Positions 277-20,366 of a stretch of 64,000 bases of DNA are shown here, piece after piece. The stretch is taken from the NCBI RefSeq assembly GCF_024502345.1, contig NZ_JALDNN010000001.1; one strand, 5' to 3'. Both the position numbers and the translations under genes were made by a program. The stretch comes from Escherichia coli. Lineage in GTDB: Bacteria; Pseudomonadota; Gammaproteobacteria; Enterobacterales; Enterobacteriaceae. How positions within the stretch are numbered: the first letter of the stretch is position 1; every line of letters begins with the position of its first letter. Under the pieces are notes generated by a model that saw nothing but the letters and a program-made list of their open reading frames with translations, searched no databases and was not told where the DNA came from.

Positions 277-1333
277 GGCTTTGTTGAATAAATCAGATTT
301 CGGGTAAGTCTCCCCCGTAGCGGGTTGTGTTTTCAGGCAATACGCACGCTTTCAGGCATACCTGCTTTCGTCATTTTGTTCAGCGCTCGTACCAGGGCCA
401 TAGCCTCTGCAACCTGACCATCGTAGTCACGCAGTGTCAGTGAACCCCCGAACAGCTGTTTTACCCGGTACATCGCCGTTTCCGCTATCGAGCGACGGTT
501 GTAATCTGTTGTCCATTTCCACCGCGCATTACTCCCGGTCATTCGCTGATTAGCCACTGCACGGTTACGGTCTGCATATTCACCGGGCCAGTAACCCGCA
601 CCTTTTCGGGGAGGGATAAGCGCGCTGATTTTCTTACGCCGCAGTTCATCGTGACATAGCCGGGTATCGTAAGCGCCATCGGCGGCGGCTGACCTGATTT
701 TCCGGTGGGTTTGCCGGATTAACCCGGGGAAGGCCTCTGAGTCCGTAACGTTGTTCAGCGACAGGTCAGCGCAGATGATTTCATGTGTTTTACTGTCAAC
801 GGCGAGATGCAGCTTACGCCAGATACGGCGGCGTTCCTGGCCATGCTTTTTGACTTTCCACTCGCCTTCACCGAAGACCTTCAGCCCGGTGGAATCAATT
901 ACCAGGTGTGCGATTTCACCCCGGGTGGGCGTTTTGAAACTGACATTAACCGACTTTGCCCGCCTGCTGACACAGCTGTAATCCGGGCAGCGTAGCGGAA
1001 CGTTCATCAGAGAAAAAATGGAATCAATAAAGCCCTGCGCAGCGCGCAGGGTCAGCCTGAATACGCGTTTAATGACCAGCACAGTCGTGATGGCAAGGTC
1101 AGAATAGCGCTGAGGTCTGCCTCGTGAAGAAGGTGTTGCTGACTCATACCAGGCCTGAATAGCTTCATCATCCAGCCAGAAAGTTATGGAGCCACGGTTG
1201 ATGAGGGCTTTATTGTAGGTGGGCCAGTTGGTGATTTTGAACTTTTGCTTTGCCACGGAACGGTCTGCGTTGTCGGGAAGATACGTGATCTGATCCTTCA
1301 ACTCAGCAAAAGTTCGATTTATTCAACAAAGCC
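277..1333 (-). mobile_element. IS903-group insertion sequence (IS5 family), copy 1, 1057 bp
   Basis: 18-bp terminal inverted repeats GGCTTTGTTGAATAAATC at 277..294 and its reverse complement at 1316..1333; single transposase ORF inside; ends match the IS903 ends known from Tn903. No flanking 9-bp direct repeat (ggcaataac vs cccttgccg). Confidence 0.9.
333..1301 (-). CDS. IS903-type DDE transposase (322 aa)
   Basis: ORF MKDQITYLPDNADRSVAKQKFKITNWPTYNKALINRGS... occupies nearly the whole IS; identical to the protein at 16576..17544. Confidence 0.9.
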   Translation of the reverse strand: MKDQITYLPDNADRSVAKQKFKITNWPTYNKALINRGSITFWLDDEAIQAWYESATPSSRGRPQRYSDLAITTVLVIKRVFRLTLRAAQGFIDSIFSLMNVPLRCPDYSCVSRRAKSVNVSFKTPTRGEIAHLVIDSTGLKVFGEGEWKVKKHGQERRRIWRKLHLAVDSKTHEIICADLSLNNVTDSEAFPGLIRQTHRKIRSAAADGAYDTRLCHDELRRKKISALIPPRKGAGYWPGEYADRNRAVANQRMTGSNARWKWTTDYNRRSIAETAMYRVKQLFGGSLTLRDYDGQVAEAMALVRALNKMTKAGMPESVRIA

Positions 1334-5949: not shown

Positions 5950-6120
5950 AGAACACCAGAGCCTGCCAATGGCAGGCTCTGACTGATGACAAAGTCTAAA
6001 AATGTGCCCGGACAGTCCCCTCGCCCCTCCGGGGAGAGGGTTAGGGTGAGGGGAACAGACCAGCAAAGTGCGCTTTGTTTATGCCAGATGCGACGCTGAC
6101 GCGTCTTATCTGGCCTACAA
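5950..6120. repeat. Intergenic repeat cluster: terminator-like hairpin, GC-rich BoxC-like palindrome, and REP
   Basis: agagcctgccaatggcaggctct hairpin; cccctcgcccctccggggagagggttagggtgagggg; gccagatgcgacgctgacgcgtcttatctggcctac (REP). Confidence 0.5.
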
Positions 6121-6264
6121 AGGGCTAACGTGCAGGTTTTTAGCTTCAGGTAATATTGCGTAACTGCATTAGCAATGCCCTGTGATTTCTTTATTGATAA
6201 ACAAAAGTCGGTGATGCTGCCAACTTACTGATTTAGTGTATGATGGTGTTTTTGAGGTGCTCCA

Positions 6265-6540
6265 GTGGCTTCTGTTTCTATCAGCTGTCCCTCCTGTTCA
6301 GCTACTGACGGGGTGGTGCGTAACGGCAAAAGCACCGCCGGACATCAGCGCTATCTCTGCTCTCACTGCCGTAAAACATGGCAACTGCAGTTCACTTACA
6401 CCGCTTCTCAACCCGGTACGCACCAGAAAATCATTGATATGGCCATGAATGGCGTTGGATGCCGGGCAACCGCCCGCATTATGGGCGTTGGCCTCAACAC
6501 GATTTTCCGCCATTTAAAAAACTCAGGCCGCAGTCGGTAA
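6265..6540 (+). CDS. insA: IS1 InsA (91 aa)
   Basis: [40 protein letters not shown]... recognised as IS1 InsA. Confidence 0.9.
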
Positions 6541-6962
6541 CCTCGCGCATACAGCCGGGCAGTGACGTCATCGTCTGCGCGGAAATGGACGAACAGTGGG
6601 GATACGTCGGGGCTAAATCGCGCCAGCGCTGGCTGTTTTACGCGTATGACAGGCTCCGGAAGACGGTTGTTGCGCACGTATTCGGTGAACGCACTATGGC
6701 GACGCTGGGGCGTCTTATGAGCCTGCTGTCACCCTTTGACGTGGTGATATGGATGACGGATGGCTGGCCGCTGTATGAATCCCGCCTGAAGGGAAAGCTG
6801 CACGTAATCAGCAAGCGATATACGCAGCGAATTGAGCGGCATAACCTGAATCTGAGGCAGCACCTGGCACGGCTGGGACGGAAGTCGCTGTCGTTCTCAA
6901 AATCGGTGGAGCTGCATGACAAAGTCATCGGGCATTATCTGAACATAAAACACTATCAATAA
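6459..6962 (+). CDS. insB: IS1 InsB (167 aa; normally expressed as InsAB' by frameshifting)
   Basis: 167-aa ORF overlapping insA within IS1. Confidence 0.85.
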
Positions 6963-6977
6963 GTTGGAGTCATTACC

Positions 6978-7415
6978 GATTATGTAATCGCCTAAACTCT
7001 TTGATAGCCGACGTTTCAAGCAACATGGATTTGCCTGAATTTAAAGCAGCCATTAATTTATCAAGGGACTGTGCGAACTTACCTGCTGGGTCTGTCGGTG
7101 TATCACGTGTTGTCGAAACAAAATGATAGATGTACATTTCATCTTCATGCTTCGTATTAATGTAAGTAAGATGAATAGCAACCGCATACGCAGGGCCACC
7201 GGACTCACTAAATTCATCACCAACAATTAAGAAATCACCAAAACCATTCATACCCTCTTCTTCATAATTAAGATGAAGATCTGAAAAGAACTCAGAATCG
7301 GGATGGTCAGCATTTCGTCTTTTTTCAAAGCCATCTTTAATTAAAATTCTTTCTGAACCCGAAAAATGTTTTCGATAAGCTTTAGAACAATAGTTAGAAA
7401 TAAATACATGTTTGT
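6978..7415 (-). pseudogene. Partner gene B, C-terminal segment (separated from the N-terminal segment by IS3; 3' end cut by IS1)
   Basis: ORF ...HVFISNYCSKAYRKHFSGSERILIKDGFEKRRNADHPDSEFF...EFRRLHNR is in frame with segment 8674..9082 once IS3 and one TGT copy are removed; the last codon and the stop codon lie inside the IS1 terminus (6973..6977). Confidence 0.7.
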
Positions 7416-7445
7416 TGATCCTACCCACGTAATATGGACACAGAC

Positions 7446-8312
7446 CTAAGCGAGGTTCTGGTTTTCAAATTGTTCCGGACTGAGGCCGCCACACCAACTG
7501 TGCCGCCGCCACCGATTGTAATCACATTCGATATAATTAAACACCGTTGCCCGCATTATTTCCCGGCTGATAAAGTGTTCTCCATGGATACATTCCACTT
7601 TCAGCGAATGAAAGAAGCTTTCCACGCAGGCATTATCGTAGCAGCAACCTTTTGCGCTCATACTTCCACGCAGATTATGCCGCTTCAGTTGCGCCTGATA
7701 ATCTGCTGAACAGTACTGGCCTCCACGGTCCGTGTGAACGATAACGTTCCGGGGCCTCTTACGCCGCCACAGCGCCATCTGCAGGGCATCGCAGGCCAGT
7801 TGCGCCGTCATGCGTGGCGACATTGACCAGCCAATAACGGCACGTGACCACAGGTCAATGACCACTGCCAGATACAGCCAGCCTTCATCTGTACGTAAGT
7901 ACGTGATGTCTCCTGCCCACTTCTGGTTCGGGCCACTGGCGTAAAAATCCTGCTCCAACAGATTTTCTGACACAGGCAGGCCGTGTGCGCGGTAGCTGAC
8001 CGGGCTGAACTTCCGGGAGGCCTTTGCCCTCAGTCCCTGACGGCGCAGGCTTGCCGCCACGGTTTTTACGTTAAAGGGGTAACCCTGAGCACGCAGTTCA
8101 TCCGTCAGGCGTGGGGCACCGTAACGCTGTTTTGACCGGGTAAAAGCCGCGAGGACAACGCTGTCGCAGTGTTGGCGGAACTGCTGACGCGTGCTTATCC
8201 TTGTCCGCCGCTGACACCACGTATACCAGCCGCTGCGGGCCACCCGGAGCACGCGGCACATTGCTTTGATGCTGAACTCAGCCTGATGTTTTTCAATAAA
8301 GACATACTTCAT
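7446..8312 (-). CDS. insF: IS3 transposase OrfB / InsF (288 aa)
   Basis: [36 protein letters not shown]... recognised as IS3 InsF with integrase-core motifs. Confidence 0.9.
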
Positions 8313-8608
8313 TTCAGGCGCTTCGCGAAGTATGTCGCGGCCTTTTGGAGGATAGCCAGCTCTTCATCCCGTTCTGCCAGCTGGCGTTTGAGACGTGCAA
8401 TCTCGGTAGACATCTCCAGTTCACGTTCAGAAGACGTCTGCTGATTTTGCTGTTTACTGCGCCAGTTGTAGAGCTGTGATTCATACAGGCTGAGTTCACG
8501 GGCTGCGGCAGTAACACCGATGCGTTCAGCAAGCTTCAGGGCTTCACTGCGAAATTCAGGCGAATGCTGTTTACGGGGTTTTTTACTGGTTGATACTGTT
8601 TTTGTCAT
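8309..8608 (-). CDS. insE: IS3 OrfA / InsE (99 aa)
   Basis: ORF contains [32 protein letters not shown]...; start set at the MTKTV methionine. Confidence 0.85.
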
Positions 8609-8673
8609 GTGAGTCACCTCTGACTGAGAGTTTACTCACTTAGCCGCGTGTCCACTATTGCTGGGTAAGATCA

Positions 8674-9082
8674 TGTATCCATCCCCAAATCTTTCATGTA
8701 AAGCTTTTGGCTCATCAAACCCGGCATGAATAAAGGTGACTTCATGAACGAGATCTGAATGAAGGAGATTATCAACCTTAGCAATAGTCATACTCTTATC
8801 AAGAAGTATTCCTACAGAAATTTTTTCATACTTACTAAATTCATTTTTTAATAATTGAGCTATACTTTGTCCATCGGTAGAGTGATCACCACATGCCGGA
8901 TTAATGATGACAATAGCCCTACCATCATTTTCTTTTATTGTTTTCAGTGTTCGCTCAAGACCATTGAGAGCCTCTCTCACAGGCTCTATAATTGGAGTAA
9001 AACCTGCCTCAGCCATTACATTAGCAGTGTCTCTAATAGCCAACAGTTCAAATTGTTTCCCACGAAAATAAGGATAATACAT
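8674..9082 (-). pseudogene. Partner gene B, N-terminal segment (136 codons) interrupted by IS3
   Basis: MYYPYFRGKQFELLAIRDTANVMAEAGFTPIIEPVREALNGLERTLK...HERFGDGY then reads into the IS3 end; starts 6 nt after the stop of gene A on the same strand. Confidence 0.7.
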
Positions 9083-9088
9083 AGTTTG

Positions 9089-18841: not shown

Positions 18842-20092
18842 TTAAGTCTTTTTAAAATCAAATGGTGAAACTTGTCGTATTCTAAGGAGGTCAAGGTAAT
18901 CGGCCCACCACTGCAACATAAGCTTTCTCTCATCAAGGTGCTCTGCTTTATGTATGTAGGCAGCACGAACTGAGTTCCGCTCCTGATGGCTCATTTGCCG
19001 TTCAACAGCATCTTTCGACCACAAGCCGGATTCAATCAAGGCACTACAAGCCATAGCCCTGAATCCATGTCCACAGACCTCCACGGTTGTGTCATAGCCC
19101 ATAGACCTCAAAGCCTTGTTTACCGTATTTTCACTCATAGGCTTTCTGAAATCATGGTCGCCAATGAACACAAGTTCATGGTCACCGCTGATCTCTTTAA
19201 TTTCCATCAACACAGCCAATGCCTGACAACTCAAAGGAACAAGGTGTGGAGTTCGCATTTTCGAACCACGGTGCGAATGTTTCACTCCGGGTAATGGCTC
19301 TCGCTCTGCAGGAATAGTCCACATAGCATTCTCTAAATCGATTTCCGACCATCTTGCGAATCTGAGTTCACTGGAACGAATGAAAATGAGCAATGTCAGC
19401 TTTACGGCTAACTTCGTGAGTTTTCTACCCTTGAAACTATCAATTCGTTCTAAAAGTTCTGAGAATCGTTCGAATGGCAAAGCTGGCCTGTGGACTCTTT
19501 TAGCTACCGCAATAGCTCCTGCCATCTCCTGGGCAGGGTTGTAATCTATCAGACCATTCTGGACAGCATATCTCATTACTGCCGTTGTTCTTTGCTGTAA
19601 TCGGGAAGCAACTTCCAGTCGCCCAGAAGCTTCAACAGCTTTGATAGGGGCAAGAAGATCTCTGGTATTAAGTTCGGATATTTTTCTTTTACCAATAGCA
19701 GTAAAGAGACCATCTTCCATGCTTTTTAGAACTCTTTCGCTGTGGGAATTTGACCATTTCCTTTTACAGGCAGTATGCCAGTCTCTCGCAACAGCTTCGA
19801 ATGTCAGGGCTTCGCTTTGCTCAATCTTATCTGCTTTTTTCTTCTCAGAAGGGTCGATACCATCAGATACCAACTTTTTGGCTTCATCTCGCTTCCTGCG
19901 GGCTTCACCAAGAGAGACCATTGGATAAACACCTAATGCTAAAACTTTCTGCTTGCCCCCGAAACGGTATTGGAGTCGCCAGTATTTTGAACCATTGGGG
20001 TTGATCAGCAGGTGCATACCCTGCCCATCTGTGAGTTTGAAAGGTTTGTCGGAGGGCTTGGTAGTCCTAACTTTGATATCAGTGAGTGCCAT
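18842..20092 (-). CDS. P4-like tyrosine integrase (416 aa)
   Basis: MALTDIKVRTTKPSDKPFKLTDGQGMHLLINPNGSKYWRLQYRFGGKQKVLALGVYP... is the typical P4-family integrase N-terminus, with catalytic-domain R...H..R...Y pattern toward the C-terminus; adjacent to the 3' end of leuX. Confidence 0.85.
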   Translation of the reverse strand: MALTDIKVRTTKPSDKPFKLTDGQGMHLLINPNGSKYWRLQYRFGGKQKVLALGVYPMVSLGEARRKRDEAKKLVSDGIDPSEKKKADKIEQSEALTFEAVARDWHTACKRKWSNSHSERVLKSMEDGLFTAIGKRKISELNTRDLLAPIKAVEASGRLEVASRLQQRTTAVMRYAVQNGLIDYNPAQEMAGAIAVAKRVHRPALPFERFSELLERIDSFKGRKLTKLAVKLTLLIFIRSSELRFARWSEIDLENAMWTIPAEREPLPGVKHSHRGSKMRTPHLVPLSCQALAVLMEIKEISGDHELVFIGDHDFRKPMSENTVNKALRSMGYDTTVEVCGHGFRAMACSALIESGLWSKDAVERQMSHQERNSVRAAYIHKAEHLDERKLMLQWWADYLDLLRIRQVSPFDFKKT

Positions 20093-20281
20093 CAGTTGAT
20101 ACCTCCGCTGTTGGTATCAAAATCAATCGAACCGAAGATACCACCAGTTATACCATCATTCGTTGGTATATGTGGATAGAAGTAAGTAGACGTGGACAGA
20201 CTAAGAAAAGCCAAAACTCTGCTTAACTTACTGTTTTTGTGGACTAAAGTAGACGTTAGTAGACTTGAAAAAAACTTTTTA

Positions 20282-20366
20282 TGGTGCCGAAGGCCGGACT
20301 CGAACCGGCACGTATTTCTACGGTTGATTTTGAATCAACTGCGTCTACCGATTTCGCCACTTCGGC
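20282..20366 (-). tRNA. leuX: tRNA-Leu (anticodon CAA), leuX
   Basis: Reverse complement reads GCCGAAGTGGCGAAATCGGTAGACGCAGTTGATTCAAAATCAACCGTAGAAATACGTGCCGGTTCGAGTCCGGCCTTCGGCACCA (85 nt with CCA). Confidence 0.95.

Follow-up and report, generated by a model that had tools for sequence, protein, structure and literature searches.

The question raised by this locus is whether a copy of IS3 which interrupts a gene of the sce7725 family in Escherichia coli arrived by one simple transposition, and in what state it found the gene. The window, i.e. the whole stretch of 64,000 nucleotides which was analysed here, contains a complete IS3 at 7416..8673 (minus strand, 1258 bp), which is oriented like the gene that it interrupts. 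We are close to certain of the following explanation: IS3 transposed cleanly into a sce7725-family gene of a leuX-adjacent island, and that gene had most likely already been truncated by IS1. The identity of the element, its target site, the interrupted gene, the order of the events and the spread of the insertion are described below, together with the other readings which the same data might allow.

Thousands of E. coli genomes contain elements with the annotation IS3, with which the segment 7416..8673 aligns end to end (100% coverage, 99.9% identity); the sole mismatch to the common E. coli IS3 is an A for G at window position 7444, in the non-coding end. The element starts with TGATCCTACCC and finishes with GGGTAAGATCA, and thus has TG...CA ends. 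Its terminal inverted repeats (approximately 7416..7454 and 8635..8673) are imperfect, with matches at 27 of 39 positions. Both ORFs are intact and are found on the minus strand. The first, orfA (8309..8608), encodes 99 amino acids, of which the N-terminal part matches NF033516, and its translation is identical to that of reference copies. The second, orfB (7446..8312), encodes the catalytic part of the DDE transposase (288 amino acids) and matches the NCBIfam model NF033516 (transpos_IS3) with an E-value of 3.3e-101 and 339 bits, the cut-off being 160. The two ORFs overlap by 4 nt, and the orfB protein is identical to reference copies which carry the RefSeq annotation ‘programmed frameshift’. 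An A-AAA-G motif is located within orfA at approximately 8343..8347, which we take to be the known frameshift motif of IS3. Members of the IS3 family produce a fused OrfAB transposase via −1 frameshifting and move by copy-out/paste-in through a circular intermediate; the window copy has all the parts required for this in intact form, and its sequence shows nothing to the contrary. All the features of IS3 membership which a sequence can display are present in the window copy: it is like the IS3 of E. coli in its length, its ends, its two overlapping ORFs, the A-AAA-G motif, the NF033516 match and the 3-bp duplication. It differs by the A at 7444 and by its insertion site, which is absent from 5,426 complete E. 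coli genomes; an exact match to the 1258 bp is also absent among these genomes. Because the single difference is non-coding and both proteins are identical to the reference, the element is a canonical and apparently functional IS3.

The left copy of the target-site duplication, TGT, is located at 7413..7415 (ACA on the gene strand, where it spans codons 136/137 of sce7725), and the right copy at 8674..8676, both being read directly from the sequence. The original prediction had placed the TGT flanks at these positions, and it was correct to the base. The layout of the junctions is ...AAATACATGTT-TGT, then TGATCCTACCCACG ... CTGGGTAAGATCA, then TGT-ATCCATCCCC.... A 3-bp target duplication is the normal footprint for IS3, which is supported by a sample of eight other copies; our literature search retrieved no explicit passage giving a 3-bp duplication for IS3. 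These eight full-length copies (L026..L033) have a flanking repeat in three cases (3 bp in two and 4 bp in one). Since only three of the eight keep a repeat, the target duplication is typical of fresh IS3 insertions and not of every copy.

The five copies without a duplication could be taken in favour of a different reading, in which the flanking TGTs are coincidental and IS3 marks a recombination or rearrangement junction of two older copies. A 3-mer matches by chance with a probability of 1/64; hence, empty-site alleles were sought. The reconstruction, in which 6978..7415 is joined to 8677..9082 (IS3 and one TGT removed; 844 nt), was searched in the 5,426 complete E. coli genomes, and 18 of them match it in one ungapped piece with 97.4-99.8% identity. 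All 18 have an uninterrupted ‘sce7725 family protein’ annotated at the site, and the empty site reads ...AAATACATGTTTGTATCCATCCCC..., with one TGT. Strain AHS8C65RI follows the 844 nt position for position, with two mismatches approximately 260 nt from the join, and its site reads ...ACATGTTTGTATCCATCC..., again with a single TGT. The flanks are thus directly contiguous in the 18 complete genomes, as they are in the Logan contig described next, which refutes a coincidental match; we give that reading practically no weight and treat the two TGTs as copies of one target.

Concerning the lineage of the window itself, the query for an empty site was the exact 282-amino-acid protein predicted for the IS3-free window allele, which ends in an IS1-encoded arginine. 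This protein was found on a 1916-bp Logan contig from SRR21938201 (L019). The contig is 100% identical to 6951..7415 and 8674..10127 of the window; the two blocks overlap by exactly 3 nt, TGT, and the contig starts with 27 bp of the IS1 end. Based on its complete identity to both flanks, its one TGT and its IS1 end, L019 is the empty-site allele of the same lineage. Given such an allele, the comparison proves that IS3 arrived by simple insertion: 3 bp were duplicated, nothing was deleted or rearranged, and nothing else changed. It had also been claimed that no deletion was associated with the insertion, and the uninterrupted homologues (the 18 genomes and L019) agree, as they have no extra sequence at the junction.

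The intact sce7725 protein has a length of 310 amino acids, and IS3 is located between its codons 136 and 137. The 5′ fragment (8674..9082, minus strand, codons 1-136) matches positions 1-133 of the 312 positions of the NF033831 profile (E 2.5e-36); the ORF at 8636..9082 consists of this fragment and 12 codons read into IS3 (MILPSNSGHAAK), which gives 148 amino acids. The 3′ fragment (6978..7415, minus strand, codons 137-281) matches positions 141-287 of 312 of the same profile (E 4.3e-52), is 100% identical to 6001..6438 of the related locus L001, and ends at the IS1 boundary. The scores of the two fragments are 126 and 178 bits and that of the intact allele is 362 bits, with a cut-off of 60. 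After removal of IS3 and one TGT the fragments are joined in one frame on the minus strand (...HERFGDGY-KHVFISNYCSK...), as had been predicted, and across the join the frame agrees with that of homologues: the 310-amino-acid allele has the same residues 136-140 (YKHVF), and F140 is invariant in an alignment of 30 sequences of the sce7725 family. The prediction had further spoken of an exact reconstruction of the interrupted ORF. This is true at the join, but the product is a 282-amino-acid, 3′-truncated ORF and not the 310-amino-acid gene: instead of a complete CDS of approximately 310 amino acids, removal of IS3 yields 281 native residues and one IS1-encoded residue. The C-terminal 29 amino acids of sce7725 were not found anywhere in the window by tblastn, and these lost residues include 12 positions which are invariant in the 30-sequence family alignment. 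The family comprises 5,549 clusters and is approximately 60% identical across phyla. The AlphaFold model of sce7725 (pLDDT 85.6) has a generic TIM-barrel-like fold, and the profile search assigned no Pfam family to the protein.

The truncation is found at an IS1 of 768 bp (6210..6977, plus strand), both ORFs of which have NF033558 matches. On one side of this IS1 are the last 19 bp of fimH and on the other is codon 281 of sce7725; it is without a target duplication, its flanks being ACAAAAGTC and GATTATGTA. In the intact genomes a RES-domain gene (341 amino acids) starts 1 nt after sce7725 and is followed by an integrase. Based on collinearity with strain W409, what is gone at the IS1 relative to related genomes is the fim operon, an integrase, the RES gene and the 3′ end of sce7725; the RES gene was not found in the window. 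Judged by this collinearity, the IS1 is the mark of a large deletion.

Because L019 carries the IS1 junction but no IS3, the IS1 deletion most likely came first and the IS3 second, and IS3 would then have landed in an existing pseudogene; this order is read from one short Logan contig of an uncharacterised sample. The order of the events is not readable from the window alone and just one empty-site contig of the lineage was found, so that the reverse has to be weighed, namely that IS3 entered the complete gene, that the IS1 truncation came later and that L019 is the product of a precise excision of IS3. Such an excision would have had to restore exactly one TGT using only the 3-bp repeats, whereas precise excision via 3-bp repeats is very rare, and L019, with its IS1 junction, is in all other respects 100% identical to the window. 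The intermediate which the reverse order calls for, an IS3-interrupted product with an intact 3′ end, is not on record, although this is a weak negative since it comes from an exact-protein look-up only. We therefore consider IS3 before IS1 highly improbable, and the order IS1, then IS3, is followed below.

Regarding the spread of the insertion, the IS3 junctions were found in none of the 5,426 complete RefSeq E. coli genomes (the best coverage was approximately 60% of either 300-nt junction query), and, as none of them carries the insertion, the age and spread of the lineage are not datable from this set. A neighbourhood of IS1, IS3 and hsdM in strain JS316, which was retrieved with a 7-kb query, is an unrelated locus. 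The insertion is present, with identical junctions, in approximately ten other assemblies and metagenomes. The 148-amino-acid fusion (136 native and 12 IS3-read residues) has the database entries WP_249440326.1/MCQ7032134.1, from an E. coli contig of 4.74 Mb, and is encoded on 13 contigs, among them those of GCA_001484235.1 and of several ENA metagenomes. The 151-amino-acid 3′ product is found on seven contigs of approximately 540-720 bp, which are bounded by IS1 and IS3 as a consequence of short-read assembly. All the junction-bearing contigs match the window across the junctions and have A at 7444, an A which is common to all metagenome contigs of the lineage. The lineage contigs are essentially identical to the window at 8534..11000, and the positions at which they differ are concentrated at 11000..13200, around hsdM.

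Misassembly is a well-known problem with IS elements, and an error of repeat resolution could in principle have placed IS3 here. However, both junctions are crossed by independent short-read assemblies, which run 54-140 bp into IS3 before they stop and have the same sequence as the window. In six samples, the 438-bp piece which separates IS1 from IS3 was assembled as a contig of its own; the chance of an assembly artefact is accordingly negligible. With the insertion taken as real, its distribution makes it a lineage marker. It had also been called recent. This is correct in so far as 1.9 kb of flanking sequence shows no substitution relative to the empty-site allele. Yet some ten independent assemblies and metagenomes already have the insertion, so that ‘recent’ is to be understood in a relative sense only. 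Judged by these two observations, the insertion is too young for its flanks to have diverged from the empty-site allele by even one substitution, but it has had time to spread.

The original prediction contrasted this insertion with the IS1 and IS903 copies of the window, and the contrast is justified: those copies are without target duplications and are found at deletions or rearrangements. IS903 is present at 277..1333 and at 16544..17600, in two copies of opposite orientation and 100% identity, and a 9-bp duplication is absent in any combination of their flanks. Copy A sits in yjiC, of which approximately 455 bp are missing; the flanks of copy B are contiguous in no complete genome. An inversion between the two copies was considered and rejected, as the swapped 9-bp duplications were not found, and so was a composite transposon of the two, the outer duplication of which was not found. 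The inverted pair brackets 15 kb containing uxuRBA, IS1, the IS3 locus, the hsdM remnants and an autotransporter gene. Among the sampled IS3 copies of other genomes, two from different strains have the same right flank and different left flanks, which suggests IS3-mediated rearrangements at those sites.

Concerning the genes which accompany sce7725, its upstream operon partner in the window is an intact sce7726-family gene of the P4 cII family (9089..9991, minus strand), which matches NF033832 (E 4.3e-52) and the PADLOC model ‘cll’ (E 7.5e-20); P4 cII itself matches NF033832 at 2.5e-44. The intact sce7726-sce7725-RES operon is found in L001 (4885..7651) and in L002, and the remnant in the window covers 6978..9991. 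The trio recurs in distant Proteobacteria, namely in Enterobacterales, Xanthomonadales (Pseudoxanthomonas) and Halomonas (among the loci L021, L023 and L025), while a Rhodobacteraceae genome has the sce7726-sce7725 pair and no RES gene was called there. In the unrelated genome of Halomonas piscis CP119391.1 (L023, 5936..9464), the trio is likewise disrupted, as two transposase genes are located between sce7725 and RES. PADLOC 2.0.0 has no model for the sce7725 or the RES protein of the trio. Our literature search found sce7725 and sce7726 mentioned only in passing, and no paper retrieved by it characterises them.

The gop-beta-cII locus of satellite phage P4 has been reported to act against phages (Rousset et al. 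2022, PMC9122126; bioRxiv 10.1101/2023.04.06.535777). The sce7726 of the operon and P4 cII are assigned to one NCBIfam family, and both loci consist of three genes in a defence-rich island, beside a P4-type integrase and a tRNA gene. They differ in gene orientation and in the third gene, which encodes a 341-amino-acid RES-domain protein in the operon but the 133-amino-acid Gop in P4. The possibility that sce7725 is a divergent P4 beta (PF14350) was rejected: BLASTP gave an E-value of 7, there was no PF14350 hit and the hhalign probability was 0.2%. Searches of Pfam and NCBIfam at E-values up to 10 also gave no link between the two proteins, and just a short N-terminal YYPxxR...E motif aligns. 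Looking at the components separately, the cII family is present, beta is absent, and in the place of Gop the intact alleles have RES, which is absent from the window. Because sce7725 has no detectable relation to beta and the third gene is RES and not gop, the locus, by its gene content, is not a member of the P4 gop-beta-cII system. A RES domain (PF08808, E 7.8e-18) is present in the product of the downstream gene which was lost, and the RefSeq name of this product is ‘RES family NAD+ phosphorylase’; a match to a HEPN/RES N-terminal domain is weak and below the Pfam cut-off. It shares the RES domain with the Xre-RES toxin-antitoxin systems, but the trio is without an Xre antitoxin, and RES is paired instead with sce7726 and sce7725. 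Based on these resemblances, it is conceivable, at somewhat less than an even chance in our estimate, that the trio is a module, so far uncharacterised, for anti-phage defence or abortive infection, which would be distantly related to P4 gop-beta-cII and have RES as its NAD+-degrading effector.

The island itself is recognised by a tRNA-Leu(CAA) gene, leuX, at 20282..20366, which adjoins a P4-type integrase of 416 amino acids (region 18842..20366); it follows that the IS3 locus is inside a leuX-integrated island. The leuX-side integrase is 72.6% identical to the second integrase flanking RES in AHS8C65RI. In related genomes the island also holds Kiwa-like, Pycsar-effector, TIR and caspase-family genes. 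In the window, hsdM (12128..13254) is split into ORFs of 91 and 267 amino acids, and no hsdS or hsdR ORF follows; in the related metagenome contig L004 both hsdM and hsdS are intact.

The course of events which we propose begins with the IS1-associated deletion, which removed the last 29 codons of sce7725, the RES gene, the integrase and the fim operon. IS3 would then have inserted between codons 136 and 137 in the orientation of the gene. TGT would have been duplicated when the target was cut in a staggered manner and the gaps were repaired, the normal outcome in the IS3 family, this chemistry being taken from what is known of the family. As the gene was already truncated and RES lost, the insertion was probably neutral, and it has since been inherited by the lineage which is seen in several isolates and metagenomes. 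A selective explanation can be put beside this, in which the insertion was favoured because it silences what is left of a toxin-like or defence operon, where this does harm to the cell; the sce7725 fragment, for example, might be deleterious without RES. The operon does resemble toxin-antitoxin-like defence modules (a P4 cII-family gene and an RES NAD+ phosphorylase-type gene), IS elements interrupt the trio in the Halomonas genome as well, and the insertion is fixed in a lineage. Nevertheless, the presumed effector, RES, was already lost, at least one sample (L019) still has the allele with IS1 alone, and independent insertions at the locus are not recurrent in the 5,426 genomes. Selection is thus unlikely, and a neutral insertion is the reading which we prefer.

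An IS3 insertion with a 3-bp duplication is a textbook event, and as such it is of little wider interest. Its practical use is as a precise lineage marker, recognisable in metagenomes, which is made up of the IS1/IS3 double junction and the A at 7444. The locus also documents the stepwise, IS-driven decay of the leuX-adjacent island. The sce7726-sce7725-RES trio is the sole potentially new item and the sole lead which might be worth experiments, and it concerns the target gene and not the IS; if the trio is indeed an anti-phage module, the window would show such a module dismantled by IS1 and, later, by IS3.
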